From assembly GCA_000004985.1 (NCBI GenBank), contig GG738921.1: a DNA stretch of 64,000 nt; one strand, written 5' to 3'. The stretch comes from Naegleria gruberi. Its lineage: Eukaryota. The notes under the pieces are model-generated. The model made no database searches and had not been told where the DNA came from. It was given only the letters and a program-made list of their open reading frames with translations. Both the position numbers and the translations under genes were made by a program. This document shows, piece after piece, positions 2,426 to 51,670 of this stretch (the stretch's first letter is position 1; each line of letters starts with the position of its first letter).

Positions 2426-2965
2426 ATGGGACAAAATCCTTCTTCACCCTCTCAGAATAATAGCAATCATCTCGTTGCTCATAATCATCATCATCATCAA
2501 CAGCAGCAACAACAACCCCATCATCATCACCATCATCAACATCAACAGTGTGATGTCTTACCGAATTCAACTCATCTAATAGCAGACATTTCAGAGGAAG
2601 AACTTACAACAGATTCAACCTCGGCAACAACACCAACATCATCAACCATGACAGCTTCTCTCTCATCAAATCTTATATCGAGGAGAAGATCCTCTCTCCC
2701 CCATAAATTGAATGACCATAGTACAATGAGTGGAGAACATGATGAAACGAAACGATCCCTTGGTAAAGTATTCAAAAGTGCCACACATTTAAACGCTCAT
2801 GAAGATATTGAGAATTATTCATTGGGAAAACAATTGTGGGAGGTTGAAAAAGCAAGTAATAGTTGTAGTAGTGATGAGAGTCAGCAGCAGCAGCAGCAAC
2901 AAGACTCCCATCACGAGAGTCCAGCAATGATAATATGCCAGACTCCAAGAAATACGAAAATTTAA
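2426..2965 (+). CDS. PolyQ/polyH-rich ORF. It may be the 5' part of the next gene, or a separate small gene.
   Basis: Starts MGQNPSSPSQ... (an N-myristoylation-like MGxxxS), followed by coding CAT/CAA runs. It is in the same frame as the 3284 ORF. The intervening frame-1 ORF (2935..3273) is also codon-like. No GT-AG intron links them. Confidence 0.4.
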   Translation: MGQNPSSPSQNNSNHLVAHNHHHHQQQQQQPHHHHHHQHQQCDVLPNSTHLIADISEEELTTDSTSATTPTSSTMTASLSSNLISRRRSSLPHKLNDHSTMSGEHDETKRSLGKVFKSATHLNAHEDIENYSLGKQLWEVEKASNSCSSDESQQQQQQQDSHHESPAMIICQTPRNTKI

Positions 2966-3283
2966 ATATCAAATCGAAACGAAACAATACTCTACCACTA
3001 ACAATAACTGCTAAGGAGAATGAATCACCAGTTCATCGCTCGAATACTCATCCTCATCTTTCCTCTCGCAATTTTCAAGATCACCAACAACAACCTGTAA
3101 CATATTCCAATAATCTCAATACTCCAAATTCTGCCACCTACAAAACTTCCCAGAAATTAATCAAACTAAAGCCATTTTCTACACCAGATTTGAAAAGGAG
3201 TGCACTTTTAAATAGTAGGAACAATCAAGAGGAAGTAAGTGTATTTAATTTGATTTCTAATAGTTTCGAATAATTTCGAATAG

Positions 3284-4612
3284 ATGAATGGAGTAGATAC
3301 AGATACTTTAACACCTACAGTGAGTGACGATATTTCATTTAATTCATCATCTGTCTATTCTCCACCACAACATGCCAATTCTTTCAGAAATAGTGTCCTC
3401 TCAACAACAAGTAGTGCCAGTGGAGGATCCAACAATAATCACAATAATAGTCTCATCAATTCTCTTTTCCCATCTCTTCCGGTTGACAGGACTAAAATGA
3501 CTGATGAGGAATTTACTGTCTACAAGGAGGTTGTCAGTAAACCAGTTTATGAAAAAATTCTGAAAAGTAAACCTCTGACAGCTAAATGTGGATTCAATGA
3601 AGAGTATATGAAAGAGTTTGCTTTTGAACTTTCTGATGAGGAAGAATTGAAAAATACCTATCTCACAACAGACTGGGTTGAAACAGCAAAACTCCTCCAA
3701 AGAACAAGAAGTATCGACGAGACCACTCTCAATCTTGACCCAAAAACTCTACTCGAACCAATAATTAATACAGTTTCTAAACGTGATTCTCTCTCCTCTA
3801 TTGAAGAGGAAGTGAAGAAAATTGTAATGGAAGAACAAGAGGTTCTCAAACAAGAAATCAAAATCAAGCTAATAATTACTGAAATTGCAAATGCACCTAC
3901 AAAAACTCTGAGACAATTTCTTTCTCCTGTTTTGCACAAGATGAATGTTCTACCAGAGATTGGTTGGTTTCACTCTGCTATTCTCGTAGGGAAGTGGAGA
4001 CTTGACTTTAATGATAGTAGTGTAGTAATACCGAGAAAGCTTGTTAGTCAGGCTGCTGTTATTACTACAGACATTGAAACAATTAGTACATTGGAGGATC
4101 TCAATAGAGTGATTGATGGCATGTCGAGATGCATTTGTAAATGGAATAGAAATATAACGTATAAACAAACTGGAGGAGATAGAATTAACACAGGGAACTG
4201 TCAGGATTTTGTGGAAGATTTGTTGGATAGTATTGGAGTTAAAATGAATCTTTCTGGAAGTATGAAGAAATTTGTAAAACGTTTGAGAAAGACAGGAAAG
4301 TGTTCCCTTGTCTTTGAAATGGATAAGAGATTCAGAGAATATTTTGGAATGGAATCTAAACGGGTGAAGTTCAAATCACACGAACAATTAGATTTGTTTG
4401 TGAGAAAATTACTTGACAAGTGTCCAAATTTTGCTCAAGAATTCAATGATGAATGGATACTCTTACAAAGTTTTGATAGAACCTACTGGTTGAAACACAT
4501 TACGTACACTCACATTGAAGAGTATAAACCATGCAAGGTCATTAGAGATAATAAGGGAGTTTCCGATTGTCCATTTCACGAACCCGAGTTCACTAACTTG
4601 CTTAAAGACTAG
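3284..4612 (+). CDS. Papain-like thiol-enzyme-fold protein of the PPPDE/DeSI or NC-domain (LRAT/HRASLS-like) type.
   Basis: A true ATG at 3284 preceded by an in-frame TAG. The C-terminal half contains WFHSAILVGKW (the His box) and, about 75 residues later, GNCQDFVEDLL (an NCxxF Cys box). This matches the His/Cys dyad spacing of PPPDE and NC-domain families. Confidence 0.55.
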   Translation: MNGVDTDTLTPTVSDDISFNSSSVYSPPQHANSFRNSVLSTTSSASGGSNNNHNNSLINSLFPSLPVDRTKMTDEEFTVYKEVVSKPVYEKILKSKPLTAKCGFNEEYMKEFAFELSDEEELKNTYLTTDWVETAKLLQRTRSIDETTLNLDPKTLLEPIINTVSKRDSLSSIEEEVKKIVMEEQEVLKQEIKIKLIITEIANAPTKTLRQFLSPVLHKMNVLPEIGWFHSAILVGKWRLDFNDSSVVIPRKLVSQAAVITTDIETISTLEDLNRVIDGMSRCICKWNRNITYKQTGGDRINTGNCQDFVEDLLDSIGVKMNLSGSMKKFVKRLRKTGKCSLVFEMDKRFREYFGMESKRVKFKSHEQLDLFVRKLLDKCPNFAQEFNDEWILLQSFDRTYWLKHITYTHIEEYKPCKVIRDNKGVSDCPFHEPEFTNLLKD

Positions 4613-13840: not shown

Positions 13841-16716
13841 ATGGCAAACTCCTTTTCTTTCATCTTGTTTGCCATCTTGGTTTTGAATTGGGCCTTGTTA
13901 GCCAATTGTAATTTGACTTTTTCACAACAAACATTCAACACTCTCCTCAACTCAACCCAAACTTCAACTCTATCACTGACAATGTACATGGGAGGTGGAA
14001 CAACCATCAAAAACAGTAACAACAGCACATGTGGAATGTCTGTGGATAATCCATGTACAAACTTTAATCAATTATTATTAACTTTTAATTGGACACTCTT
14101 TAGTCAATTTGAGAATTTCACAAAAGCAACATCGGCAGGTGAAAGAAACGTTCACTTGAAGATACTGATACTTCCAGATGGCAGTATTTTCTGTCCTATC
14201 AATCCAGTTAATTTATCTCCTTCAATGAATTATCATTTAGAATTTACGAAACTAGTCGAATCATCAACAATAACACCCATCTTGACCTGCCTCAACACAC
14301 AAGATGGAAATGGCATTTCCATTCCTNNNNNNNNNNNNNNNNNNNNNNNNNNNNNNNNNNNNNNNNNNNNNNNNNNNNNNNNNNNNNNNNNNNNNNNNNN
14401 NNNNNNNNNNNNNNNNNNNNNNNNNNNNNNNNNNNNNNNNNNNNNNNNNNNNNNNNNNNNNNNNNNNNNNNNNNNNNNNNNNNNNNNNNNNNNNNNNNNN
14501 NNNNNNNNNNNNNNNNNNNNNNNNNNNNNNNNNNNNNNNNNNNNNNNNNNNNNNNNNNNNNNNNNNNNNNNNNNNNNNNNNNNNNNNNNNNNNNNNNNNN
14601 NNNNNNNNNNNNNNNNNNNNNNNNNNNNNNNNNNNNNNNNNNNNNNNNNNNNNNNNNNNNNNNNNNNNNNNNNNNNNNNNNNNNNNNNNNNNNNNNNNNN
14701 NNNNNNNNNNNNNNNNNNNNNNNNNNNNNNNNNNNNNNNNNNNNNNNNNNNNNNNNNNNNNNNNNNNNNNNNNNNNNNNNNNNNNNNNNNNNNNNNNNNN
14801 NNNNNNNNNNNNNNNNNNNNNNNNNNNNNNNNNNNNNNNNNNNNNNNNNNNNNNNNNNNNNNNNNNNNNNNNNNNNNNNNNNNNNNNNNNNNNNNNNNNN
14901 NNNNNNNNNNNNNNNNNNNNNNNNNNNNNNNNNNNNNNNNNNNNNNNNNNNNNNNNNNNNNNNNNNNNNNNNNNNNNNNNNNNNNNNNNNNNNNNNNNNN
15001 NNNNNNNNNNNNNNNNNNNNNNNNNNNNNNNNNNNNNNNNNNNNNNNNNNNNNNNNNNNNNNNNNNNNNNNNNNNNNNNNNNNNNNNNNNNNNNNNNNNN
15101 NNNNNNNNNNNNNNNNNNNNNNNNNNNNNNNNNNNNNNNNNNNNNNNNNNNNNNNNNNNNNNNNNNNNNNNNNNNNNNNNNNNNNNNNNNNNNNNNNNNN
15201 NNNNNNNNNNNNNNNNNNNNNNNNNNNNNNNNNNNNNNNNNNNNNNNNNNNNNNNNNNNNNNNNNNNNNNNNNNNNNNNNNNNNNNNNNNNNNNNNNNNN
15301 NNNNNNNNNNNNNNNNNNNNNNNNNNNNNNNNNNNNNNNNNNNNNNNNNNNNNNNNNNNNNNNNNNNNNNNNNNNNNNNNNNNNNNNNNNNNNNNNNNNN
15401 NNNNNNNNNNNNNNNNNNNNNNNNNNNNNNNNNNNNNNNNNNNNNNNNNNNNNNNNNNNNNNNNNNNNNNNNNNNNNNNNNNNNNNNNNNNNNNNNNNNN
15501 NNNNNNNNNNNNNNNNNNNNTTGGAATAGCATTAGGTTTTGGAATATTCTTTGTGTGGAAAATTGTAAAGAAATTGAGAAAACTGAAAAGTAAGGAGAAG
15601 GCAGAGAAACAAATTGAAGAAAAACTTTTAGACAAGCGACTTATTTTCAATATGAATGACGAGGAGGATGAATATTATGAGGGCTCCACACCAAATATTG
15701 AAAGAAGCAAATCATCTTATGGGAAAGTATCTGAAAAGGAGTTAGTTTCTTCATTGATTGACAGTGAAAAGAAGAAATCAAAACATTCTTTCAGTTTTTC
15801 ATCCTCTTACATTATTCCAATTGAAGACATATCAATTATTAAAAAGATTGGAGAAGGAGGCGCAGCTAATGTATATTATGGTACATGGACCAATATTAAA
15901 GTGGCTATCAAGTCACTCAAGATTGACAGTTTTGATGATGATTTTGAGAATGAAGCAGCCATCCTCAGTTTAATTAGACATCCAAACATTCTGACATTCT
16001 ATGGAGTATGTTTGACTGATAAGAGTCGATATATTGTGACTGAATATATGGAAAATGGCTCTCTAGACAGGTATATATTTTTGAATAAGAACAGAGCATT
16101 GAATATTGACCTATTCAAATCAAATATTGGAATTTTGTGTGGAATTGTGGATGGTATGCAATATTTACACTCTCTTAAACCTTCAATTATTCACAGAGAT
16201 TTGAAATCGAGTAATATATTGTTGGACGAAAGAAATACTCCAAAAGTTTCTGATTTTGGTCTTGTTAAAGTATTGGGAAACAATACAATCAGTCAAATTA
16301 CAAAAGGAATTGGTACAGTGTATTATTTAGCTCCAGAAACATTCATTGCTGAACATCAAATTGAAAATAAGGAAGAGGCAACCAAGTTGGACATTTACAG
16401 TTTTGCAATAATCATGTGGGAATTATTCTTTCGAATGAGTCCTTATCATCATGTGAAAAATCCATTCAAAGTGCCTCAAATGGTTGTCAATGGAGAAAGA
16501 CCTCAAATTCCCTTCAATATTGAAAATGATACGGAAATCAAAGAATGGCTTTCAATTCAAGCATTGGAAATTTCATCGTCTGACAATTCTTTCATTAATG
16601 GTATTAAGAAATACTTCTCACTCATTCTCCAATGTTGGAATCAAAATCCATTACAAAGACCTACATTCCTGACAATTAGAAGAGAATTGGATGAGATTTA
16701 CAATCTAATCGGTTGA
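13841..16716 (+). CDS. Receptor-like TKL-group protein kinase. The gene spans the assembly gap. Domain order: signal peptide, N-glycosylated ectodomain, [gap], TM helix, Ser/Thr/Tyr kinase.
   Basis: 5' ORF MANSFSFILFAILVLNWALLANC... with many NxS/T sites runs into the N run at 14327. Immediately after the gap, the same strand reads LGIALGFGIFFVWKIVKKLRKLK (a TM helix plus basic stop-transfer). Then a complete kinase follows: GEGGAANVYYG, VAIK, HRDLKSSNILL, DFG, APE. It ends at 16716. Confidence 0.65.
14327..15520. other. Assembly gap (1194 N).
   Basis: Run of N. ORFs 14264..15532, 14292..15650 and 14304..15593 in the track are artefacts of translating N. Confidence 1.
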
Positions 16717-22703: not shown

Positions 22704-24776
22704 ATGTCAACAAATAATGAATTGGTTGTTGACGTCCAACAAATTAAGGATGATATGAAACAACAACAGCAACAACAGCCAGAGAGGAAATCAAGAAATC
22801 CCTTCAAGAAAAACAAGAAAAAGGCTGAAAACAAAGAAACAGAAGATATTGTCGATACAAGAGAACCAAATCTCAAATTTAAAGACAGTTTCACAATTTA
22901 CAAAATCATTGGATGGAATTGGATTTTGATATTCTTGGGAAGTATTGGTGCTATGGGAACAGGTGTTATTCCAATTAGGTAAGTTTCAGATATTTGAGTT
23001 TTTGTTACAAACACTTTCAAAGTTTCCAATTTGTTATGGGAGATTTAATCAATGTCTTTTCACCAACACGTGCCGATGGATCCACTGTTACTGCAGCTGA
23101 ACAGAAAGCTGAAATTGGAACATATGCTTCATACTTTGCAATTATTGCAGCTGCAGCTTGTATTGCCAATTTCATGTCTCAATTCTTTTTGAATTGGGCA
23201 AGTGAAAGAATTGGTGTTGCTATTAGAAGTGCTTATTTTGACTCATTGACAGTTCAAGAGATGGGTTTCTTTGATATTAAGAAGGTTGGTGCATTGACCA
23301 TTACTCTTTCTGAAGATATTACTCGTATTCAGGAAGTTTACTCTGTCAAGTTGGCTACCTTACTTCAAAACTTGGCTCAGTTCGTTGTCGGTGTCATTCT
23401 TGCCTTAACATCAGGATGGCAAATGGCCCTCGTCATGATGAGTACAACACCATTAATGATTTTGGGTGTAGTGTTGTTGGGTGGTGTTATCAGAAAGTTG
23501 ACCTTGTCAATTAATAAGGCCAACGATCATAGTGCCTCCATTGCTACTGAAGTGATGGGAGCTATGAGAACTGTAAGATCAATGGCCGGAGAGGAAAAGG
23601 AAAGAGTCAGATACAAGAAGGACTTGACCAAGATGTATTTGGCTGGTATTGGTAAGGCTGTTGCTCAAGGTTCTACTTTTGGTGTTTTGGTTGGTATCTT
23701 GTGGGGTACTACTGCTTTAGGTAAGTTTTTTTATTATTTCAAATTAGCTCAATAATGTTATTTTAGCTTTCTGGTATGGTGGTGGTCTAGTTGTTGATGG
23801 AACCATGAATATTGGATCTATGCTCAAGGTTTTCGGTTTGACATTGTTTGCTATTATTGGTATTTCTCAAGCTGGTTCATTCTTCCCTGATTATGGTAAG
23901 GCCATGGTTTCTCAAAAGACTGTTTTGAAATTATTGAAGAGACAACCAGCTATTATTTTCAAGGGAGGTAAAACTCTTGATACTATCATTGGTAATGTCA
24001 CATTTGAAAATGTTGATTTTGTCTATCCATCACGTCCAAATGCTACTGTCTTGAAGAATTTCAGTTTGGATATTAAGGCAGGTCAAGCTGTTGCTTTGGT
24101 TGGTCCATCTGGTTCAGGTAAATCAACAATTGTTGGTTTATTGGAAAGATTCTACGACCCAGCTCAGGGTAAGGTTTATCTTGATGGTGTTGATATCGCT
24201 GAAATCGATCCAATGTGGCTCCACAAGAATATTGGTATTGTCACTCAAGAACCTGTATTGTTTGCAACCAGCATTTACAAGAATATTGCTTATGCTATTG
24301 GTGAAGAAAATACTACAATGGAAAAGGTTATTGAAGCCGCTAAATCTGCCAACTGTCACAATTTCATTATGGACTTACCAGATGGATACAATACTTTATT
24401 GGGTGAACGTGGTGTCTCACTCTCAGGTGGTCAAAAGCAACGTGTCTGTATTGCTCGTGCCTTATTGCAAAATCCAAAACTTCTCTTATTGGATGAAGCT
24501 ACATCTGCCTTGGATACTGAATCTGAATCTCTCGTTCAAGCTGCTTTGGATTTATTGATGAAGGGTCGTACAACTATTTGTATTGCTCACAGATTGTCAA
24601 CTGTTAAGAACTCTGACAAGATTTGTGTATTGGCTAAGGGTATTTTGAAAGAAACTGGTACTCATGCCGAATTAATGGCCATTGAAAATGGTATCTATAA
24701 GAATTTGGCTGAAAGACAAATGTTGTTCTCTAATGAAAATGCTGATGTTGAAGCAACAATGGAAGTTTTGCAATAA
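22704..24776 (+). CDS. ABC transporter, B-family half-transporter (TMD-NBD). Three exons: join(22704..22978, 23023..23720, 23767..24776).
   Basis: Introns are 44 and 46 nt with GTAAGT donors. TMD with six helices. NBD motifs: Walker A GPSGSGKST, Q-loop, ABC signature LSGGQKQRVCIARAL, Walker B LLLLDEATSALD, H-loop IAHRLST. Confidence 0.85.
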
Positions 24777-32315: not shown

Positions 32316-32494
32316 ATTTGATTATCAATCAAATAATCAATGAAAACTAACAATACGGAAGGAAATATTCAATTTTAACAAGATTAAGAAGATTGAATAG
32401 AGAAGTGACAATAGAAAAGAGTAAATAATTTTACCCTGCCATCAAACCAAACATTAACACGAAGCCAAAATTGATTGTTGTAAAACAAAAAAAA

Positions 32495-33694
32495 ATGTCA
32501 AAACGAGATCGGTCATCTCGCGAGCAAGAGGATGAACAAGAAGGAACTTTGTCTTCGGAAGAAGAAATTTTTGATGATACACCAACATTGATGAAAAATG
32601 ATTTTTCAATGGAAAGGAAGAAGAAAAAAGTAAAACAAGCACCACCCTTTAATCTTGTCAAAATTACGCAAGATTACGATCAATCACATTATAAATGTGT
32701 TCAACTAGGAAATGATTATGATTCATATATGTTATTTTCGGCCAACAAAACGCCAACCAAAGAGATTAAAGAAGTGATATTCATGATGGAAACATTTCTA
32801 CTTATTAGAACAGTTGAAAATAGAATATTTTACATGGATGAAATGATTGCACATGGAGAGGTGGATTGCAGCAAGATCATTGATAAGAGTTCAATTTTGA
32901 AACTTGTGGCAACCTCTTCATCTGCCTATTTACTAACAAAGAGCGGAATTTATGTGTATGCTCGTGGTACTCATTCATTTGAACCTTCCTTTTCAATTGA
33001 AAATCATGATGAGGAGTTTGTTGATATTTCAGCATCTTTTGTTGATAACTTACTGATTCTAACAAGTGAGAATAGAATTTTAACAACTGGTTGGAATAAG
33101 TTTGGAATGTTGGGAGATGGCACAACCAAAAGCAAATATCACTCATTAGTTAATCCTGAAACAAGTCATACTCATCGTGTAAAGATTATAGTGAGTGGAT
33201 CATGCTTTAGTCTTTACACAAGTGGCAGCTCTTTATTTGCATGTGGAGAATTGTATAATATTGGAAGTTCTGCATGTGTCTCCAAGTTTGAAAGACAATC
33301 TCATTTCAAATTCGAAGCGTCAGATGTGGAACAGATCATTGCCAAACCTTTATTTACCTGTTTTTGGACGAAACAACATGATTTACATATTTACGGAAGG
33401 GGATTTTATACCAAACTCAATCTTAATCAAAATATTTACTCAATAGCTGTGCTTTACACCAACATATTCTGCTCATATAAGAATGGAAATGAAATAACAC
33501 AAACAAGACATGAACATGTTTCAAATGGAGAGTTTACAACAGAGGTTGTGACTGGAAAGTATAATGTCAAGTGGTTCAATTCTGTTTGTGTTGGTTCCAA
33601 CTCAATGTTGCTGTTTTTCACAAAACCACAGGAGGAGTCAATATTTAAAAAAGTAATTACCAATTTTTTTGACATCATAGTCGATTCTTCATGA
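32495..33694 (+). CDS. RCC1-like repeat (beta-propeller) protein.
   Basis: ATG at 32495 (MSKRDRSSRE...). Repeats such as TGWNKFGMLGDGTTKSKY and LFACGELYNIGSS fit the RCC1 blade signature. The track ORF start at 32471 is a non-ATG start. Confidence 0.55.
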   Translation: MSKRDRSSREQEDEQEGTLSSEEEIFDDTPTLMKNDFSMERKKKKVKQAPPFNLVKITQDYDQSHYKCVQLGNDYDSYMLFSANKTPTKEIKEVIFMMETFLLIRTVENRIFYMDEMIAHGEVDCSKIIDKSSILKLVATSSSAYLLTKSGIYVYARGTHSFEPSFSIENHDEEFVDISASFVDNLLILTSENRILTTGWNKFGMLGDGTTKSKYHSLVNPETSHTHRVKIIVSGSCFSLYTSGSSLFACGELYNIGSSACVSKFERQSHFKFEASDVEQIIAKPLFTCFWTKQHDLHIYGRGFYTKLNLNQNIYSIAVLYTNIFCSYKNGNEITQTRHEHVSNGEFTTEVVTGKYNVKWFNSVCVGSNSMLLFFTKPQEESIFKKVITNFFDIIVDSS

Positions 33695-37880: not shown

Positions 37881-38988
37881 ATGTCTGCTCAATCCATTAG
37901 CTTTTCCAAGTATACAAAATTCGACAATCACTACAGAAAACAATACGTCGAATCGATCAAGACCCAAAATGAAGAGATGAGCAAGAAATTAAATCATCCA
38001 ATGGAATGGTATTGCTCCGAGAAGGTTCATGGTTGTAATTTGAGCTTTATTGTTGATAGAGTAAGGCAATCAGAGTATAAAGTAGAGGTTGCTAATCGTT
38101 CATGTGTTCTTTCACAATCATCAATGAGCTTTTATCCAAAAACAATTGAACAGTTGGAGAAAAAGTTTGAGTGGTGAATTGAATGAACAATTGAAATTGA
38201 AGAGTGTTCAAATTTATGGTGAATTATTTGGTGGATTATTCCCAAATAAGAAACCTTCAGATGCTAAGGCAATTCAAAGTGGAATTCACTATTGTCCACA
38301 TCATGATTTTTATGCTTTTGATGTTCTTCTCGGATTTGAGAATGGAAAACAATCTTGGGCTGTTTTTAACAATGTTGATCCATTGTTGGATGAGTGTGGA
38401 TTCAAAGTGAGAGCTCAACCATTGTTTAAGGGAACTTTGGACGAATGTTTGGAGTTTGATGTTAAATTTAACACTAAATTACCAGAAACTTTCTATCCAG
38501 AAATTGTAAAGGAAAGAAATGCTTCCTGGAAGGATTTGGATAATATTTGTGAAGGTGTTGTCATCAAACCAACCAAGTACAATATCTTTGTGGAAACTGA
38601 AAGAGCTGTAATCAAGAAGAAGAATGAAAAATTCTTGGAAACTGAAGCTAGTGATAAACCACAACAACCAGTGAAAAAGGAAAAGGGTGACTCTGAAGAG
38701 CTAGTTCAGGTATGGAATGAACTCTCACGATACATTACCTCCAATCGTTTGGATAATGTTCTCTCAAAGATTGGAAACCTCACCAAGAGTAACATGTTCC
38801 CAGTTATGAAGGAATTCTCAAATGATGCCCTCGAAGAATTTAAATTAGATTTGGAACGTGGTGCTTTGGAAAATTGTAAACCAGTTTCTTCACTTTCAAG
38901 TGAAGATCAGAAAAAGCTCACTAAAAAGATCAATGATGCTTGTATGGTTTTAATTAAGGAACAATTAAACAAACCATCATCAGAATAA
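37881..38988 (+). CDS. T4 Rnl2-family (ATP-dependent) RNA ligase. The reading frame is interrupted once near 38150-38177.
   Basis: MSAQSISFSKYTKFDNHYRKQYVESI...MEWYCSEKVHGCNLSF aligns with T4 Rnl2 [20 protein letters not shown]...GEWVAREKIHGTNFSL. Motif I Lys is at 38022-38024. Downstream VQIYGELFGG...IHYCPHHDFYAFDV aligns with YQVFGEFAGPGIQK..DYCDKDFYVFDI. C-terminal NRLDNVLSKIGNLTKSNMFPVMKEF aligns with NRVNNVISKIGEIGPKDFGKVMGL. Frame 0 ends ...EKKFEW* at 38177. Frame 1 opens at 38128 and carries the rest. The shift lies at or near the run GGAGAAAAAG (38156-38165). Confidence 0.75.
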
Positions 38989-39624: not shown

Positions 39625-41562
39625 ATGCTCAACACTGAAACCAAGCTAACCTTCCATCATGCAATTTTCGAATTATCGGAAGGCTACTTTTTCATTGATC
39701 AAATTCTTCCATTCTTTTCTTTCAATGATTTGGAAAATTTATTTCTCACCTCCAAACATATTGCCGAGTTGGTGAGCAGACAACATCACATTGATTATTT
39801 AGCTGTTTTTAATGCTGGACTTGCACATTATTCATCATCGGGGAATCGGAATAGATGGATTGATTCAACTCCTCCGAATGAATTTCCATCACTGCTGCAA
39901 TTTGCAAATGGAATAAAAGTGATGATTGAAGCAGAGGGATCATGGCTGATTGAATATATTATTGGTTATTGTCGGAAGGTGAATAAGTTATTCAGTATTT
40001 CATATGATAAATATATTTATAATTGGTCACAAATGGATTTATCACTGATTAAGAATATTGAGGAGTTTGGACTTGTCAGGTTGGACATGTATAATTTTCC
40101 AAAATTTATGCCATTGTTTGAGGGAAAGAAAGTGAAACAGATTAAATTATCTATGGGATATATTTATCAAGATATCTTTGAACAGACTAGACCTGTTTTA
40201 GATAAGATCAATTTCAAGGAATTATATTATTCCATTTCATGGGTTTCTTCATTTAATATACTGAGTGAAGGTCTATCTAAGGAAGATTTAGATTTTAGAA
40301 ACAAGATAAAGATTTCAGTAGGTGATGTCGGGATAGATCAACACCATTATAGTTCGCTGAAAAACATTTCTAAATGTTTCGAGTTTAGTTCAATTACAAT
40401 TGAGAATGCTACAAAAAAAGAGGAGGATTATAGCGACCACAAATTTGACCTATTTTCAAAATCATACACCTTGAAAGCAGCTTTTTTAACCAAAGTACAG
40501 TCACTTGCATTGCCTAAATTCTCAAATACTGAGCCTTCAGCAATAGAAATGCATAATATTGAATTAGCTCTCAATAGTGCAAACATTGATACTTTTCATG
40601 TGCTACACACGACGAAATATTTAACAGAATTGAAATTGCAGGACTGTCACATTGATTTTTCAGATATTGATGCAATTGACTTGAAATTATTGAATAATAT
40701 GGTTTTGAATAGATGTAAATTTGTAAAGAATGGAAAACAATCAAATTTGGAATTTATTGAATGTATTAGTGCACCTAAACTCACAAATCTAACATGTGGT
40801 GACCTGTCGTTAAAATCAATTCCAATGATTTCAAAGAGTATCACCACTTTAAAATTAGGCAAGAATGAAATTGAAAATATCGAATTGGAAAGGTTAGATT
40901 CTATGAAAGGATTGACTAGTTTGGATTTATCAAATAACAAGTTAAATGATTTAAAAAACGTTCAGTCGATTATTGGAAAATTCAAGGACCTGAAATTGAA
41001 TGGAAATCCAATCTTTAAACGTATGATGATTAACAAAAACAAACTAGAATTTATTAACGATGACTGTAAACATGATGTTAAAAGATCGAGTAAGCTAAAC
41101 ACAAAACCAAAATTTTCTGGAACAGATGTGGAAATTATCAAACAATTCAGAATCATTATCTCTCAGAGAGATTATCCACACTGTGTTGAAAGGAAGGATT
41201 TTCTTAAACTAATTTCAAATCCAAAAAAACCAAACAGCTTGGACGAAACAAATGTGATTTTCTGGAACCATCACTACAGCAACAGTCAAACATCATTGTC
41301 AAAAGATGGAAATACCACATTTGTTGGAACTAATTTTACAAGCTTTTGTCAAGTTGCCATCTATCTAAACAATTATTTACAACACGAGTTTTGCTCTAAA
41401 TGGTATTTTTTCGGTATTAATGGAACAGATAATATTGAGCCACTGCATAATAGAGAATTGCTAAATGAGGTGTCCTATATTGTGCATGAATGGTCCTTTG
41501 TTTCCTCTCACATTGAATTTGTTAGAGAATTGAGAAGAAAATATCCTTCGAATTCTTTCTAA
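39625..41562 (+). CDS. Leucine-rich-repeat protein (645 aa) with a possible N-terminal F-box-like region.
   Basis: N-terminal ILPFFSFNDLENLFLTSKHIAELV (F-box-like). LRR consensus in LTSLDLSNNKLNDLKNVQSIIGKFKDLKLNGNPI. Single exon. Confidence 0.55.
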   Translation: MLNTETKLTFHHAIFELSEGYFFIDQILPFFSFNDLENLFLTSKHIAELVSRQHHIDYLAVFNAGLAHYSSSGNRNRWIDSTPPNEFPSLLQFANGIKVMIEAEGSWLIEYIIGYCRKVNKLFSISYDKYIYNWSQMDLSLIKNIEEFGLVRLDMYNFPKFMPLFEGKKVKQIKLSMGYIYQDIFEQTRPVLDKINFKELYYSISWVSSFNILSEGLSKEDLDFRNKIKISVGDVGIDQHHYSSLKNISKCFEFSSITIENATKKEEDYSDHKFDLFSKSYTLKAAFLTKVQSLALPKFSNTEPSAIEMHNIELALNSANIDTFHVLHTTKYLTELKLQDCHIDFSDIDAIDLKLLNNMVLNRCKFVKNGKQSNLEFIECISAPKLTNLTCGDLSLKSIPMISKSITTLKLGKNEIENIELERLDSMKGLTSLDLSNNKLNDLKNVQSIIGKFKDLKLNGNPIFKRMMINKNKLEFINDDCKHDVKRSSKLNTKPKFSGTDVEIIKQFRIIISQRDYPHCVERKDFLKLISNPKKPNSLDETNVIFWNHHYSNSQTSLSKDGNTTFVGTNFTSFCQVAIYLNNYLQHEFCSKWYFFGINGTDNIEPLHNRELLNEVSYIVHEWSFVSSHIEFVRELRRKYPSNSF

Positions 41563-42719: not shown

Positions 42720-44267
42720 TCATCTAATGTTTTCCAATTTTAGTGTTTCTTCTTGTACATAAATGTCTTTCGTTTGCAATTTAGAAAAGGTAGGATTAGT
42801 TTTCAGTGCTTGTAAACATTCGCTTGTTACTTTCATTTTTCCTTTTCTGTTTCCTTCAAGTTTTGTTAAATTTATCAAATTGGTGCAATTTGATAAAATG
42901 GTTGCATCTATAGATGTTTCTTCAATATTTGTAAAACGTAATTCCTTTAAATTAGACAAGATTGGATTGGTGCAAATTATTTGCAATTCCTTGTTTCCAC
43001 CATCGATACTCAAATATTCCAAATTTGATAGACAAGTAGAATTCAAATAATTTGAAAGGACATTTTGTGATTCCTTGGTAGGTCTAAGACGTAGTTGTTT
43101 GAGCTCTGGACAATGATCAATAAGTGAGGGAAATGGTGCCAAGTTGGAGTCATCCAATTTTAGGTTGGTAATTGAACTTTGACTGTTGGGAGGAAATTTA
43201 GCAATTGTATTATCAAATACCATATTTCGATAAGATTGTACATTCGCATTTACCCATTTGACTGTTGTTAGATTTGGTAAGTTTGGAGAAATAAGCAAAT
43301 TTGCAAAATCCTGATTGTTAATGGAACATTCAGTAATCTTGAGATATGTAAGATTCTTACAATTTCCATTTGATAAAGAAATATCAGTAATTTGGTAGTT
43401 TCCAATGTCCAAATATTCCAAGTTGGGCTTATTTTTCAATACTTCATTCTGAAATTCGTTACCTCTGTAACCGTATGTATGAGATGTTAAATGAGTAATT
43501 TGTTTCAAATATTTGGTACCCAAGCATGACCCAATTCCATCAAAATTATATGATACATCTAACTTCTTAACGGTTGACATAAACGCACTTCCAAATAATG
43601 CATCTGCTTCCGTTTTTTTAAACTTTTGCAGTTGCCTTAAGCTCAGTTCAGTTAAGTTTGGCATTTGACATTTCGTTAAATGCTTTACGGATGATAGAAT
43701 CAAATTATTACCAGAAATATCTAATGTGTGCAATTTATCCCATCTGATACCTTTTCTTGAAAGTGATTGAAATGAGCTAACAAGAGCACCAGACAATTTC
43801 AAAGAAGTGACATTCTTAATTTGTGGACTTTTTACCAAAAACTCAACATTCTTGGAAGCATTCACTTGTATTTCAACCCTGTCCACAACATCTTTCCACA
43901 ATTTTGAAACATATCTACAATAAGCGAGATCATTAACATTCAAGAATTGGAAAATACTAAATAAATTGTCAGAATTCAAACGAGTGGACGAAACTTTTTT
44001 TCTATGAATATCCACTTGTTTTAAAAACTCGTAAATATTTCCAACAAATTCATCAATTATTTCGCTATTGTACACAAAATAACGACTATCAACAAGTTTC
44101 ACCTTATTTGCCAATGAAATTAATTGTGAATTAACAGTCGTCATTTCTTCAAATAACACCGATTCAATATTTTCATCATCAAACATTTTTCCATCATGAC
44201 CATCGTGATGATCAGCAGCCGAAGGCTGTGATGATTCGTGCTTTCTCTTCTTTGTGTTGTTGGTCAT
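42720..44267 (-). CDS. F-box / LRR protein (515 aa).
   Basis: F-box LFSIFQFLNVNDLAYCRYVSKLWKDVV. Multiple LRRs (NLTELSLRQL, NLEYLDIGNYQITDISL, NLTYLKITECSINN...). Confidence 0.65.
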   Translation of the reverse strand: MTNNTKKRKHESSQPSAADHHDGHDGKMFDDENIESVLFEEMTTVNSQLISLANKVKLVDSRYFVYNSEIIDEFVGNIYEFLKQVDIHRKKVSSTRLNSDNLFSIFQFLNVNDLAYCRYVSKLWKDVVDRVEIQVNASKNVEFLVKSPQIKNVTSLKLSGALVSSFQSLSRKGIRWDKLHTLDISGNNLILSSVKHLTKCQMPNLTELSLRQLQKFKKTEADALFGSAFMSTVKKLDVSYNFDGIGSCLGTKYLKQITHLTSHTYGYRGNEFQNEVLKNKPNLEYLDIGNYQITDISLSNGNCKNLTYLKITECSINNQDFANLLISPNLPNLTTVKWVNANVQSYRNMVFDNTIAKFPPNSQSSITNLKLDDSNLAPFPSLIDHCPELKQLRLRPTKESQNVLSNYLNSTCLSNLEYLSIDGGNKELQIICTNPILSNLKELRFTNIEETSIDATILSNCTNLINLTKLEGNRKGKMKVTSECLQALKTNPTFSKLQTKDIYVQEETLKLENIR

Positions 44268-44373: not shown

Positions 44374-45513
44374 TTAGTTGTATTGATGTTTTGCAGGTGA
44401 TGCCATTCGAATAGGAGCATCTGGATTCAATTGATAATCTGTTTGTAAGAGTGGATACAGTGTAATTGTCTTTCTGGTACACATTGAAATAATTGGGAAA
44501 TACATGACAGATTGTGAGACTAAATCCTGAGTTCCAGTAATTGCTGATGCAATGTGAATTCCATTCTTGAAAAAGTTGACCTGTTTGGCATCGTAATCTA
44601 TAATGACAGCAAATCGATCACCAACAGAGATCTTTCCAACAAATTCAGAACCTACAGTTCCATCAATAAAGTCGCCAAACATTTTGAATGATTTGTTTTC
44701 GAGAATGTAACCAACTCCAGAGTTTCTTTCAACGAATTGAGCTATGGATTTGTCATTATTGAAATCTTCATAATCAGTTCCAATACCAAATGCTATTGTT
44801 AATTGATGGAGGTCAATGTGTCAATATTTCAAATATAGTAAATTTCCAATATACTTACCAACATTCCATGCATTGCCACACAAGAAATATTCTTCAATAA
44901 CCATCTCATATCCTTTAAATCCAAAGTAAAATTGAGGAGATAGTTCTGATAAATCCTTAATCATTGGATATTTGGATGCTTTAAATGCATACCAAGTTGT
45001 AACGTTAATATTTCCAACAGTTCTCTCTCTATTAATGACCTTTTGTTCCTCAACATCAGATGCCTTGTCAAAACACAACTTTTTCATTTGCATCAACACT
45101 GAACTATACTTGATTGCATTTCCCTCTCTCAAAAAGAGCATTTCCCTCAAATATCGATCCAATTCCTTCTCATTCATTGAATTGACCAACGAAACATCCA
45201 AACCACTACTAATAATCTTTGAATTCACTTCATCAATAAATCCATTCATCATACCCAACAATCTATGTTTCCAAATAGTATTTCTATACGCAGCAACATC
45301 ATCCTCTTCATCATCACGATAATTGGAAGAATTCAAACAACCTCCCAAAACCAAATGATAATAAAATCGATTCAAACAAGCAACATTCATCAATGTATTC
45401 TCACAACAATACCACAGAACATTTACTTGATTATCGAGTGGGAGTTCCTGGAATGGAATTTTGTATAACCATTCACCATCAGCAATTTCCAATGTTGTTG
45501 TTGTTGTTGACAT
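44374..45513 (-). CDS. F-box / SPRY (B30.2-like) domain protein. Two exons: join(44374..44792, 44859..45513).
   Basis: N-terminal F-box-like IPFQELPLDNQVNVLWYCCENTLMNVACLNRFYYHLV. A 66-nt minus-strand intron (GTAAGT...AATAG). SPRY core GVGYILENKSF...GDRFAVIIDYDAKQVNFFKNGIHI. Confidence 0.65.
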
Positions 45514-46366: not shown

Positions 46367-47677
46367 ATGCTTTCTTCCAATCATCAACAAGTTCTCTTCC
46401 TCTCCAACCAATCCTCCTCGATGGAAATTGACGGAGTTTTTGAAAAATGTAATCTTGTCTCTCTCCATCAATTAACAAATTTGGAAATTAAGAAAATTTG
46501 TCCCTCCTCGAGAAATTCATTTATTTGGACAAGTGAGGAAGATCGAATTTTCAAAGTGGGTCGCTCGAATGTTCCAATAGAATCTGAAATTCAATACTGG
46601 AAGAATCCACTCAATTGTTTCGAATGGAAATGGAAAGAAAGAGTGAATAGATATTTGAGAATGAATAAGGAAATGGCATCTATTGTGGATGGTAGAGTTT
46701 TAAATTTGAAGAATATTTATGCATCGTGGTATGCTGTCTTTTTAGAGTTGGATGATGGAGTTTTCTTTGCTGTCAATGATCAAGATGAAAGAATGTGGAA
46801 ATTGGAAAAGGAAATTAAAATGTTTGTAACCTCGCCATGTAGTAATCATGCTTTGGTGGTATTGGAAGATGATGAGCTCATTAATATTGACAGTTTATTC
46901 TTTCAGATGCCTTCTTCTGAAACAGATCAAATTGATGGAACAATTGTAAAGGCAGCAACATCTGCCAAGTCAGATATCATTTTCACAGATAAGAATAAGA
47001 TGTTTTGTAGAGGGGATAATCGATTCAATGTTCAAAATGGTACTAGATCTAATGGATTTTATTCCTATGTGAGAACTCCTTTCGAAAATGAAAGTCTAGT
47101 TCAACAAGTCAAATGTGGACTTTTTCACACAGCTGTCATGTTGGAAAATAAGAGTATTTATGTGTGTGGACAAAACAAATTCAATCAATGTGGAGTTTCC
47201 TCAAAGGAAGATCAATCCTTTACAAAAATTCAATTCTCTTCAGATATAATTCCAGAGAGTTTGTATTGTGGAAGTGATTCGACTGGTTTCACCACCAAAT
47301 TCTCAACCTCCCTGTATGTGTTTGGTGGCATGTTGAAGAATTTAGATTTGAATGCAGTGGAACATGTCCAACAGATGCAAATTACTCAAAAGAAGGGAAA
47401 TAATCAACAACAACCAACAGAATCAGTTTCGTTTGAACAAGTTTCAAGATTTGAACCTTTCGAATTGATTTCAGGAGTGAAGGGTATTAAACTATCACTC
47501 AAATCCATTCCAAATGCTGATTTCAATTCGGTAGTGTTTGGAGATTCGTACATGTTGGTCTTTAAGAGAAATGAGCTAATTGGAAAAACATTGAATTATA
47601 TTCATTTGAATATGAAACGTCTTGGCTTGCAAATTGATAAGCACTATTCAGATCTTGTCTTTCACACTGAATGTTAA
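46367..47677 (+). CDS. RCC1-like repeat protein (436 aa).
   Basis: Blades such as CGLFHTAVMLENKSIYVCGQNKFNQCGV, plus a further G/C-containing repeat. Confidence 0.55.
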   Translation: MLSSNHQQVLFLSNQSSSMEIDGVFEKCNLVSLHQLTNLEIKKICPSSRNSFIWTSEEDRIFKVGRSNVPIESEIQYWKNPLNCFEWKWKERVNRYLRMNKEMASIVDGRVLNLKNIYASWYAVFLELDDGVFFAVNDQDERMWKLEKEIKMFVTSPCSNHALVVLEDDELINIDSLFFQMPSSETDQIDGTIVKAATSAKSDIIFTDKNKMFCRGDNRFNVQNGTRSNGFYSYVRTPFENESLVQQVKCGLFHTAVMLENKSIYVCGQNKFNQCGVSSKEDQSFTKIQFSSDIIPESLYCGSDSTGFTTKFSTSLYVFGGMLKNLDLNAVEHVQQMQITQKKGNNQQQPTESVSFEQVSRFEPFELISGVKGIKLSLKSIPNADFNSVVFGDSYMLVFKRNELIGKTLNYIHLNMKRLGLQIDKHYSDLVFHTEC

Positions 47678-48773: not shown

Positions 48774-49817
48774 ATGTATCAAGATGCATGGGTGGAGGTG
48801 ATGCAATTTTTAGAGCCGATTGATGTGTTGGCGTCTCTACTCACTCTCAATAGAAATTTGTATGAATGGATTAGAAAATCTTCGTGTTTAACCTTTGATG
48901 ATATTTGTAATTATTGTGCTGGAGATGAAAATTCATCCCGAGGCTTGAAAATTTCATTTCATCATCAAATTGATGATCATGATAATTCAATGATTGATAA
49001 TGTAATTGATGATTATTATGTAAAATTGGTTGGAAATACTAAATATATTATTCGGTTGTACTTGGCAAAATTGGCCAAACGATTGGGAAATCAAAATCCT
49101 GTGGAGAGATCTGAGAAAGAAATTTCAAAAATTCTGAATTCATACGAATTGAAATTATTGAATTTTTATAGATCTGTGTTTTTTCCTCAATTTAAATATC
49201 AGGAGAGTGGAACGATTAATTATTTTGTTTTGGGAGATACAGGAATAGGAAAGACAACTTTCAGATATTTTATATGTTATGGAAAGAAAAAAGATAGTTA
49301 TTATGGAGCTACTGGAATTGATTTTCTTATCAAACGGTTTCAAATTGCTGATGAGATGAAATGTGAACATAAGATTTTTGACACTGCTGGTCAAGAAAGG
49401 TTCTTTGCTCCAAACATGATGGTGAAAAGACATGCAAGAAACGATAGGATGGGATTTCTTCTTTGTTTTTCAATGGTTCATCTAGTGTCGTTTGAGAAAT
49501 TGGATGAATGGTTTTCTGCTGTTAAGGAACATGCCCATCCAGAAATTTCAAATTATGGATTAATTGTTGGATTACATCCCCAGAATATTCGTTGGGTCGA
49601 AACTCCTAGCGAACCTCAGATCTGTGTTAAAGATACTGTAAAGAAATCGTATGCTCTTGGTAAATCAGTGTTTTTTGAAGCGAATTGCAATGAGTCCAAA
49701 CAAGTATTTGCTCCTTTTTGGTTTATTCAATTACAATGCACTTATTTCAATAATTGTAAAGAGAAAGACAAGGATCTAACACAAGTTAATAATTCTTGGA
49801 ACTGCTCAATATATTAA
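48774..49817 (+). CDS. F-box-like N-terminus fused to a divergent Rab/Ras-like small GTPase domain.
   Basis: N-terminal VMQFLEPIDVLASLLTLNRNLYEWI (F-box pattern). GTPase G1 FVLGDTGIGKTT and G3 DTAGQERF. The G4 NKxD motif is degenerate (GLHPQN). Confidence 0.6.
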   Translation: MYQDAWVEVMQFLEPIDVLASLLTLNRNLYEWIRKSSCLTFDDICNYCAGDENSSRGLKISFHHQIDDHDNSMIDNVIDDYYVKLVGNTKYIIRLYLAKLAKRLGNQNPVERSEKEISKILNSYELKLLNFYRSVFFPQFKYQESGTINYFVLGDTGIGKTTFRYFICYGKKKDSYYGATGIDFLIKRFQIADEMKCEHKIFDTAGQERFFAPNMMVKRHARNDRMGFLLCFSMVHLVSFEKLDEWFSAVKEHAHPEISNYGLIVGLHPQNIRWVETPSEPQICVKDTVKKSYALGKSVFFEANCNESKQVFAPFWFIQLQCTYFNNCKEKDKDLTQVNNSWNCSIY

Positions 49818-49888: not shown

Positions 49889-51670
49889 TTATTGGAATGG
49901 TTCCAATTCAATTTCGAAAACTGAAACTGGTGTCTTCAAACCAAAGTTAGAAGCAACTTCTGGATGAATAATACCGAAAATACCAATCTTCTTGCCCTTG
50001 TAGAAGATATCAGCTTGTCTACCTGGCAAGAAGCTAATATCGTTAGATGGGAAAATTGAGAAACAGTGCTTATCAACAGATTGGCTATGTTCAACTTCGA
50101 ATGGAACAGCTAAAACTTCCATAACTCTGTCAACCAAACCGTGAATCAGTTCCAAACCCGATGTAGCAGATGAGAAGAGAGCAGCAAGTCTTCTATTATT
50201 CTTAGCACCAACATCCTTAGAATCATCAACTAAAATAACATCACCACATTCGAACAATTTGATTGGCAATGGCAATGACTTGTTGCTTTGCAAGGTCTTT
50301 AACAAACCTGGAATCAAACTAATTCTAGCAGTCTTGAATTCGAATGGACATGGTTCAGCAACAGCAATAGCAGTCTTACCATCGTTGACTCTGTTCATGT
50401 ATTTAAAGTTTTCTTCATCGTTACAGAGAATCAAGGACAAAACTTCAGTATATCCTGACATGGCGAGTTCAAGACGCACCATTTCTGACAATTGGTTCAA
50501 TTCATTTTCCTTACCAACAGTTGAAGACTTTGGGAAAGTAATTGGGATATTGTTGTAACCATGAGCAATGGCAACATCTTCCATAATATCACAAGCATGT
50601 AAAACGTCTGAACGAGTTGGTGGAGCAAGAACTCTCAATTCATTATTTTGAGTGACAGTAGCATTCAATTGCATCTTTGTCAAAATTTCTGCAATTTGTT
50701 GAGCAGATAAATTCAAACCAATTCTACTATTAATATAGTCGCTATTTGTAGTGAATTCAACATTATCAAGAATTGGAGTAGGTTCATCCTTTGATTGAGT
50801 CTTATCTTCATATACAATTTCAACTTGTTCAACTGTGAATGGAACAGAGCAATGTTCAGAGAACATGGTAACAACAGTATTCAAGACAACCTTAGCCTTT
50901 GTCAAATCAGTTGCAGTACATTCAATGAAAACATTCTTTGTAGACATTTTGATCTTTGAGTGATCTCCGTTAATAATTGGTGGCAAAGACAAAACTCTTC
51001 TCTTAGCATCTAAAATAACTGGATAAACTGGACTATCCTTGATAATCTTAGTGTAAGGGGACAAGTGCTTCATTTCACTTCCCTTTTTTTCAATAAAAGC
51101 GAAAAGTTCGTCAGCATCCATTAATTCAGTTCTATCCAAAGGAATGAATTTGATTTCTTTTGGTGGAAGAGCTTCATATGTGAAAGGACCTTCAATAACA
51201 TCCAAATCGTGAGTACCAATAGCAACGAGGGTTCTCTTTCTACAAATATTTTGATGAAGCTTTTCTTGTAAATCAATGAAACTATTGTAGGCATCTTCGG
51301 TGAAGGTGATATTTCTCAAGACAGCACCAACAACAAATTTACGGATTGATCCAGTTTCCTTTTTCACGTTAATCTTTAACAATTGTTTGGTTTTGGAATT
51401 ATCAATTTTATAGGTTGGAGCATCTTGACGACCGAGGAAAATGTTCAAAGCTCTGCTCAAGCCTTCTTCACAGAGTAAATCGTATCTGTTGGCTGGGATT
51501 TCAATCTTGTAGATGACTTCATCGGAGAGTTTGCTTGTATCCTTTGCAGAACCCAATTCCTTTTCCTTCATCAATCTTTCAGAGGTAACATCATCCAATT
51601 CAATACCAAAATCAAAACAAAGTTGCTCAAAATCGGCATCGGCTATAGGAGATATTTTTTTAATTTTCAT
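49889..51670 (-). CDS. phesB: Phenylalanine--tRNA ligase beta subunit (cytosolic).
   Basis: Alignable over its whole length with human FARSB: EFDELCFEFGLELDE / DFEQLCFDFGIELDD; LYKIDVPANRYDLLC; AVLRNI.F..D.Y.SFIELQEKLHQNICRKR.LVAIGTHDLD; PPIINGDHS; ...RTTLLPGLLKT. A short additional 5' exon is possible. Confidence 0.9.
   Translation of the reverse strand: MKIKKISPIADADFEQLCFDFGIELDDVTSERLMKEKELGSAKDTSKLSDEVIYKIEIPANRYDLLCEEGLSRALNIFLGRQDAPTYKIDNSKTKQLLKINVKKETGSIRKFVVGAVLRNITFTEDAYNSFIDLQEKLHQNICRKRTLVAIGTHDLDVIEGPFTYEALPPKEIKFIPLDRTELMDADELFAFIEKKGSEMKHLSPYTKIIKDSPVYPVILDAKRRVLSLPPIINGDHSKIKMSTKNVFIECTATDLTKAKVVLNTVVTMFSEHCSVPFTVEQVEIVYEDKTQSKDEPTPILDNVEFTTNSDYINSRIGLNLSAQQIAEILTKMQLNATVTQNNELRVLAPPTRSDVLHACDIMEDVAIAHGYNNIPITFPKSSTVGKENELNQLSEMVRLELAMSGYTEVLSLILCNDEENFKYMNRVNDGKTAIAVAEPCPFEFKTARISLIPGLLKTLQSNKSLPLPIKLFECGDVILVDDSKDVGAKNNRRLAALFSSATSGLELIHGLVDRVMEVLAVPFEVEHSQSVDKHCFSIFPSNDISFLPGRQADIFYKGKKIGIFGIIHPEVASNFGLKTPVSVFEIELEPFQ

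Follow-up and report, generated by a model that had tools for sequence, protein, structure and literature searches.

The analysis of Naegleria by Herman et al. (2021, BMC Biol 19:142; PMC8296547, Additional file 4) described Naegleria-specific, divergent Rab-like subgroups with a conserved N-terminal extension, reported to be "in at least some ... identifiable as the F-box", and with a conserved CaaX in one of three such Rab-like subgroups. The authors also noted disrupting mutations in certain members of the clades and took them as a sign of birth-and-death evolution; they guessed at a role at the "organism-environment interface" and had already proposed "GTPase-dependent ubiquitination" (PMC8296547). 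According to their Additional file 4, no other extra domain is as frequent as the F-box on the Ras-superfamily GTPases of Naegleria, so in this organism the pairing of an F-box with a GTPase is not the unusual arrangement that the initial annotation of the locus studied here had taken it for.

Comparable proteins are known elsewhere. The euglenozoan FRP (FYVE-F-box-GTPase), including TbFRP, resembles the family studied here in having an F-box N-terminal to a Rab6/Ypt6/Rab18-like G domain in which G4 has been replaced, and in a suggested link to ubiquitin; its G domain is nearest to Rab18/Ypt6, and VCGLIPP or VCGIVPP stands in place of NKxD in the supplement alignment (PMC3593210). FRP differs in its N-terminal, PI3P-binding FYVE domain and in having no CaaX, the protein ending in VLLD. 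Rab40 likewise joins a Rab GTPase to a cullin-RING adaptor motif and is a prenylated, membrane-bound E3 receptor, and Rab40b/Cul5 ubiquitinates Rap2 (PMC13236570). In Rab40, however, the adaptor is a SOCS box on the C-terminal side, and the cullin is Cul5 rather than Cul1. The G domain of Rab40 is canonical, and the protein is not known outside animals.

RhoBTB combines an atypical, partly nucleotide-independent small-GTPase domain with a cullin adaptor domain (PMC13236570), and in the analysis of Herman et al. (PMC8296547) it is listed with other widespread Ras-superfamily proteins of multi-domain type, but it uses BTB and Cul3 instead of F-box and Cul1, belongs to Rho and not Rab, and is much larger. 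Effectors of Legionella carry Rab-like domains together with F-box or U-box domains (Gomez-Valero et al., bioRxiv 10.1101/350777), so that a Rab domain and an F-box can occur in one polypeptide there as well, and these bacteria infect Naegleria and other amoebae. Unlike the proteins considered here they are bacterial secreted effectors; no bacterial protein matched the N-terminal profile of the family at E <= 0.001 among 1.84 billion representatives, and none was found when bacterial genomes were scanned with patterns from close paralogues.

The present study concerns one Rab-like protein, XP_002669889.1, encoded in a 64,000-nucleotide stretch of Naegleria gruberi contig GG738921.1 (assembly GCA_000004985.1), here called the window. 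N. gruberi is a heterolobosean (Discoba), so the amoebozoan setting implied at first was wrong. The family of this protein is the CaaX subgroup of Herman et al. 2021, and nothing essential differs between the two. In their Table S8 (PMC8296547, Additional files 4 and 10), XP_002669889.1 is entered as "Rab", as are XP_002672868.1, XP_002672932.1, XP_002670133.1, XP_002673455.1 and XP_002670760.1, which are the same paralogues as were found independently in the present analysis, and corrected further models begin MNQD.W...LEPID and end CLLQ or CGLM. The domain column of that table is empty for the CaaX subgroup, with no F-box flagged, and those parts of the supplementary files (PMC8296547) that were available to us do not use the term "NKxD". 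The family, XP_002669889.1 included, its F-box-like extension, its CaaX and the ubiquitination idea are already published (PMC8296547) and are not new. What is added here is modest: quantitative support for an F-box in the CaaX subgroup, and a motif-by-motif account of the erosion of its G domain.

The Gene and its Surroundings

The gene is one intact, single-exon open reading frame of 347 codons plus stop, with a product of 347 aa that matches XP_002669889.1 / EFC37145.1 of N. gruberi, annotated as "rab family small GTPase", from end to end at 100% identity (Table 1). The ATG is preceded, five codons upstream, by an in-frame stop. The window is AT-rich, with a GC content of ~32-35%.

Table 1. 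Coordinates of the gene for XP_002669889.1, of the segments and motifs of its product, and of the two adjoining genes, as positions in the window.
Feature	Position	Strand	Basis or remark
RCC1-repeat protein	46367..47677	+	adjoins XP_002669889.1 gene
Complete gene XP_002669889.1 / EFC37145.1	48774..49817	+	ORF list; 100% identity
Divergent F-box-like segment, residues 1-40	48774..48893	+	Pfam (sub-threshold), hhalign, conservation
Spacer, residues 41-85, poorly conserved, acidic/His-rich	48894..49028	+	paralogue identity; low pLDDT
Family-specific helical linker, residues 86-137	49029..49184	+	paralogue identity; AF2 helices
Rab-like small-GTPase fold, residues 147-325	49212..49748	+	Pfam, PDB sequence match, Foldseek
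G1 / P-loop GDTGIGKT, residues 154-161, intact	49233..49256	+	Ypt6 alignment, family table
Switch I / RabF1-like ATGIDF, residues 179-184, Thr kept	49308..49325	+	aligned to Ypt6 ATIGIDF
G3 DTAGQE, residues 203-208, intact including catalytic Gln	49380..49397	+	Ypt6 alignment, family table
G4 remnant GLHPQN, residues 266-271 (GNKxD in Rabs)	49569..49586	+	Ypt6 alignment, family table
G5 remnant EANCN, residues 302-306 (ETSAK in Rabs)	49677..49691	+	Ypt6 alignment, family table
C-terminal CaaX-like box CSIY	49803..49814	+	paralogue comparison
Phenylalanyl-tRNA synthetase beta subunit	49889..51670	-	adjoins XP_002669889.1 gene

The gene had been assigned to a cluster of five F-box genes lying between 18.3 and 49.8 kb. 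This cluster received no support: among 20 large ORFs of the window scanned with Pfam, an F-box was found only in 42720..44264 on the minus strand (5.5e-07), accompanied by LRRs, and the N-termini of 39625..41562 (+) and 44821..45513 (-), which look F-box-like by eye, had no Pfam match when scanned alone. Neither of the immediate neighbours, one specifying an RCC1-repeat protein and the other a phenylalanyl-tRNA synthetase beta subunit, suggests a functional link with XP_002669889.1.

The Rab-like G Domain

Residues 151-259 of XP_002669889.1 matched the Pfam families Ras and Roc (2.7e-11), with Ras (PF00071), the profile that had been proposed as a check, scoring 60.9 bits (E 1.4e-16) over a cut-off of 21.6. 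The best PDB sequence match was Ypt6 (3.7e-14), followed by Rab27, Rab33, Sec4, Rab8 and Rab7. An AF2 model made from a nine-sequence family alignment reached a pLDDT of 68 and a pTM of 0.76, and was good for the G domain and the linker, but not for residues 1-23 (a three-sequence alignment alone gave a pLDDT of 34). When this model was compared by Foldseek with Sec4, Rab1 and Rab7, it aligned over ~175 columns with a TM of about 0.8 (target-normalised), and therefore the whole small-GTPase fold is present, not just its first two thirds. Structure prediction, which had also been proposed, thus bore out the G-domain fold but was of less help with the start of the protein, where pLDDT for residues 1-23 is below 50.

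An intact P-loop about 150 aa beyond the N-terminal motif, an intact DTAGQE and the loss of NKxD had all been claimed for this protein in the initial annotation, and all are correct. In the alignment with Ypt6, the G1 motif GxxxxGK[ST], the switch-I Thr of G2 and the G3 motif DxxGQ are all kept, GLHP replaces GNK.D, and EANCN replaces ETS.K (ETSTK in Ypt6). Since these replacements stand at the G4 and G5 positions, both of the latter motifs are lost, and G1, the switch-I Thr and G3 are kept. To call the protein nucleotide-binding-impaired is an overstatement with G1, G2 and G3 intact. As far as the motifs allow a judgement, the demonstrable loss in XP_002669889.1 is that of the guanine-specific contacts (G4/G5) only, and nucleotide-dependent switching may still be possible via the surviving G1-G3.

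Family Members and Motif Erosion

Three N. gruberi paralogues supplied a profile of their first 146 residues, and an exhaustive HMMER search of 1.84 billion representatives with it yielded only 11 proteins at E <= 0.001; two were spurious repeat proteins and the other nine have the architecture of XP_002669889.1. The members traced comprise six N. gruberi paralogues (P0001, which is XP_002669889.1 itself, and P0002, P0003, P0009, P0010 and P0013), one protein of N. lovaniensis (P0011), for which UniRef gives the name "F-box domain-containing protein", and three metagenomic proteins in two clusters (P0014/P0017 and P0016) from short contigs of about 40% GC, an extra member of the P0014 cluster having been brought in by look-up beyond the nine HMMER matches. 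These few metagenomic relatives were the only ones that our searches found outside Naegleria. A profile of the full family reached, beyond the family, Rab6-like GTPases only, a profile search with the N-terminal 50 aa returned no proteins, and no relatives were found among metagenome and prokaryote genome contigs scanned with patterns from close paralogues. By the family alignment and by its entry in Table S8 (PMC8296547), XP_002669889.1 belongs to the divergent Rab-like CaaX subgroup of Naegleria. On this sequence evidence it is one paralogue in a Naegleria-specific, fast-evolving family derived from Rabs.

Nucleotide-binding motifs are eroded throughout. NKxD is absent in all eight members that cover the G4 region (P0011 ends before it), the P-loop Lys is missing in P0002, P0014 and P0016, and DxxG is missing in most members, the full DTAGQE being kept in P0001 only. 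Because G1 and/or G3 are gone in most paralogues, the family as a whole appears to behave as pseudo-GTPase scaffolds, and XP_002669889.1, judged by its motifs, is the least eroded member of a family that is drifting towards pseudo-GTPases. Erosion on this scale, and the disrupting mutations reported for some members of the clade (PMC8296547), raise the question of whether the gene is simply a decaying copy in a birth-and-death family, with no maintained function. This is very improbable for XP_002669889.1: its reading frame of 347 codons is intact, its G1-G3 motifs are the best preserved of all members, and LKLLNFYRSVF, PFWFIQLQ.TYF and the CaaX Cys are fully conserved in it.

In each of the six N. 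gruberi paralogues the Cys just mentioned stands three or four residues from the end of the chain (CSIY, CSLM, CSLL, CIIQ, CSLQ and CFI), and this ending is a predicted prenylation signal of the CaaX type. The X residue of CSIY is unusual for a CaaX box. This box had no place in the initial annotation.

The N-terminal Extension

The segment that was first described as an F-box-type helix pattern, VMQFLEPIDVLASLLTLNRNLYEWI, occupies residues 9-33 of XP_002669889.1. A full-length Pfam scan of the protein did not find an F-box. When the first 50 residues were scanned in isolation, residues 4-38 matched positions 7-40 of the 43 in PF00646 with 16.6 bits (E 0.0078), below the cut-off of 20.5, and no other Pfam family matched this segment. 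The family as a whole is more informative. The N. lovaniensis member, P0011, scored 23.0 bits with PF00646, above the cut-off, and 21.6 bits with F-box-like (PF12937), just under the 24.3-bit cut-off of that profile; it is an unambiguous family member, with a match of 2.8e-09 to the N-terminal profile of the family (positions 3-129). Sub-threshold PF00646 matches of 15.3-16.0 bits, in the same register as in P0001, were given by P0003, P0009, P0010 and P0014, and PF00646 was the only Pfam family that isolated N-termini of the family matched.

Profile-profile comparison points the same way. With hhalign, the first 50 columns of the family alignment matched a set of ten F-boxes (nine known sequences, each Pfam-verified at 1e-6 to 1e-22, plus the F-box of window gene 42720..44264) at E 3-7e-05, with a score of 24.1-24.3 and a probability of 64-73%, M1-R34 being placed opposite "LPdEll..Ifs.L...dl.....VcK.W..l". 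In 400 column shuffles the mean score was 8.2-8.7, with a standard deviation of about 2 and a maximum of 15.7, and the reversed alignment scored 7.9, so the F-box score stands about 8 standard deviations over the shuffles. The F-box of euglenozoan FRP, run as a positive control, scored 33.1 (91%), and without P0011 the probability for the family fell to 19%. Seven N-terminal residues are invariant in the family (D4, W6, F12, L13, P15, D17 and S21), and the best-conserved ones, F-L-x-P-x-D-V/L-L, fall on the core of the F-box consensus. The Leu-Pro at the start of helix 1 was not found in XP_002669889.1, which has M-Y-Q-D at the aligned positions; its absence is explained by the start of the protein, which lies just there, as it does in all paralogues.

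Other comparisons were less favorable, and they leave room for a different explanation, in which the extension is not a working F-box but a helical module peculiar to this family. Such a module might pack against the Rab-like domain, regulate it or engage some other partner, and its F-box likeness would be due either to remote ancestry without Skp1 binding or to helix-loop-helix convergence. A home-made HMM of ten F-box sequences gave 21.5 bits for P0011 and 2.2 bits, which is noise level, for P0001. The family N-terminal HMM did not detect the window's own F-box-LRR protein, and no F-box protein turned up when the PDB was searched with sequence profiles of the first 50 aa or of the N-terminal 146 aa, the weak matches to IL-10 and gp27 being noise. 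AF2 placed helices at residues 13-22, 27-36 and 41-49, the first of them within the stretch where pLDDT is below 50. The pTM of 0.76 suggests that the helical N-terminal half (residues 30-140) forms a compact unit together with the G domain. This compactness, the noise-level HMM score and the negative PDB searches, with the sub-threshold Pfam score and the missing LP, would suit such a module. Against it stand the matches to the F-box family made independently by six members, one of them over the cut-off, the hhalign score far above its shuffles, and the coincidence of the conserved F-L-x-P-x-D-V/L-L with the F-box core, and we regard it as unlikely.

Sequence conservation is distributed unevenly along these proteins. 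For the six N. gruberi paralogues, pairwise identity averages 54.6% over residues 1-40, the best-conserved stretch of the family, 48.1% over the linker, 29.4% over the G domain and 26.7% over the spacer. In expanded F-box families it is usually the adaptor end that is conserved and the recognition end that diversifies, and the conserved residues 1-40 and diversifying G domain of the present family fit that pattern. The linker, which in XP_002669889.1 carries KYIIRLYLAKLAKRL ... LKLLNFYRSVF, is predicted by AF2 to be helical at 89-104, 114-120 and 123-136 (pLDDT about 75-83), and it had no significant match in the PDB sequence search with the N-terminal 146 aa; the pLDDT of spacer residues 53-78 is mostly low.

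Taken over the whole family, the resemblance goes beyond chance and the N-terminus is quite probably homologous to F-boxes, so that the initial assignment holds in that sense, but not as a Pfam-level identification in XP_002669889.1 itself, where PF00646 stays under its cut-off. That Skp1 binding has been retained is predicted with less assurance, and we consider it slightly favored.

Relationship to FRP

The parallels with FRP suggest that the family could be its heterolobosean orthologue, with a CaaX anchor in place of FYVE. Both lineages belong to Discoba, both proteins have an F-box followed by a Rab6/Ypt6-like G domain, and in both G-L/I-x-P stands for GNKxD (VCGLIPP in FRP and VGLHPQ here). 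A profile of FRP was prepared from eleven sequences, from the F-box onwards, and since these were transcribed from the OCR'd supplement of PMC3593210, the scores that follow depend on the OCR text: the family matched FRP with 64.5, through the G domain only, as against 146.7 between the family and ordinary Rab6-like proteins and 139.9 between FRP and Rabs, and the N-terminal halves (F-box plus linker) scored 13, with a probability of 0.3%. The Pfam scan of XP_002669889.1 found no FYVE, the protein starting with the F-box-like motif, and the authors of the FRP paper found no N. gruberi orthologue (PMC3593210). A specific link was rejected on the two hhalign results, the G-domain score lying far under both Rab scores and the N-terminal halves scoring as low as they do, and orthology is extremely improbable. 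Most simply, the family and FRP would be independent F-box-Rab fusions with independent loss of G4.

Discussion

Taken together, the observations may be accommodated by a model in which XP_002669889.1 is a prenyl-anchored SCF substrate receptor, and we give this model as a whole a probability of roughly 0.5. The lipidated C-terminus would anchor the protein on a membrane, the F-box would recruit Skp1-Cul1-Rbx1, and the helical linker would keep the Rab-like domain rigidly in place, which is consistent with the pTM of the AF2 model. Recognition of substrates by this membrane-bound SCF ubiquitin ligase would then fall to the Rab-like domain, and their selection would perhaps be modulated by nucleotide in XP_002669889.1 and be nucleotide-independent in most paralogues. 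The proposal parallels Rab40 (SOCS box, Cul5) and RhoBTB (BTB, Cul3). Skp1 binding, prenylation and the substrate-receptor role are its predicted steps.

A functional F-box could also act in cis, with the SCF ubiquitinating the Rab-like protein itself and making it short-lived. The sequence evidence for the F-box serves this possibility as well as it serves a receptor; the authors of the TbFRP study proposed a link between its F-box and rapid turnover and proteolysis of the GTPase (PMC3593210), and RhoBTB2 is itself a Cul3 substrate, according to a reference cited in PMC13236570. However, an F-box protein is as a rule a receptor and a target of auto-ubiquitination at once, so neither role excludes the other, and a G domain that diversifies much faster than the F-box is better explained as a recognition surface than as passive cargo. 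As the sole role of the F-box, self-directed turnover appears doubtful, and the substrate receptor is the model that we prefer.

What such a receptor would recognize can only be guessed at. A speculative idea, to which we attach very little weight, is that the F-box-pseudoRab proteins are "Rab decoys", membrane-anchored SCF receptors that capture proteins binding to host Rabs and deliver them for ubiquitination. Conceivable targets are effectors from Legionella, from chlamydiae or from giant viruses for which Naegleria is prey. The idea fits because a conserved F-box is coupled to a fast-evolving G domain, the family shows birth-and-death dynamics, and a role at the "organism-environment interface" has been guessed at (PMC8296547). 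If true, the family would be an innate-immunity-like system built on the GTPase fold.

If the F-box is functional, there would be large-scale coupling of Ras-superfamily folds and Cul1 ligases in Naegleria, which would be a third independent route to such a coupling beside Rab40/Cul5 and RhoBTB/Cul3, and the family would provide a natural series leading from switch-competent to pseudo-GTPase receptors. This idea is already in the literature (PMC8296547), and therefore what the locus offers is a well-preserved representative to experiment on, one in which G1-G3 are intact, G4 and G5 are lost and the CaaX box is present.

Genes neighbouring the F-box-like/Rab-like gene

The initial annotation placed the studied gene in a cluster of five F-box genes between 18.3 and 49.8 kb, but this cluster was not borne out, as the only F-box in the window with Pfam support is that of the FBXL-type gene listed in the table below. 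Two further genes look F-box-like by eye at their N-termini, 39625..41562 on the plus strand (…IDQILPFFSFNDLENLFLTSKHIAELV…) and 44821..45513 on the minus strand (…LPLDNQVNVLWYCCENTLMNVACLNRFYYHLV…), and were probably among those taken for F-box genes; a Pfam scan of these two N-termini in isolation gave no match.

The two ABC transporter ORFs are probably parts of one gene for a half-transporter, with either a short intron or a change of frame separating them. The RCC1-repeat genes lie 13 kb apart. At 13841..15650, both strands carry long 'ORFs', four in all, that overlap one another; these were rejected as artefacts of an assembly gap, a run of N that extends from 14328 to about 15500 (the end position was estimated from ORF ends and GC content). 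The same gap accounts for the apparent GC content of 0.135 between 14 and 16 kb.

Annotated features of the window and of the metagenome contigs
Sequence	Coordinates	Strand	Feature	Remarks
Window	22994..23752	+	ABC transporter transmembrane region	separate ORF
Window	23805..24773	+	ABC ATPase domain	adjoins preceding ORF, about 50 bp between
Window	32471..33691	+	RCC1-repeat protein	
Window	38146..38985	+	RNA ligase of the Rnl2 type, here encoded by a eukaryote	RNA ligase domain PF09414 1.1e-12; T4 Rnl2 C-terminal PF18043 7.2e-28
Window	42720..44264	-	F-box gene, conventional FBXL-type	PF00646 5.5e-07 at residues 95-132, then leucine-rich repeats
Window	46367..47674	+	RCC1-repeat protein	directly upstream of studied gene
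L001	118..1128		family member	same architecture
L002	2534..3529		family member	same architecture
L003	1522..2559		family member	same architecture

Relatives in metagenomes and in Euglenozoa

Three relatives of the studied gene are carried by short metagenome contigs of about 40% GC (L001–L003, from JGI 3300002220 and ENA ERZ27315067) that derive from uncultured organisms, so the family is not strictly limited to the sequenced Naegleria species. All three lack the CaaX box. On L003, the family member is followed by a gene (2681..3850) whose product carries a sub-threshold F-box (residues 42-79).

The NKxD motif has also been lost from FRP, the euglenozoan FYVE-F-box-GTPase, where the supplementary alignment has VCGLIPP, VCGIVPP or ICGLKGD in its place (PMC3593210), replacements similar to the GLHPQN of the studied gene (49569..49586). 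Comparison of sequence profiles indicates that FRP and the Naegleria family originated independently, so that F-box and Rab domains appear to have been fused on two separate occasions in Discoba, with guanine specificity lost in a similar way.
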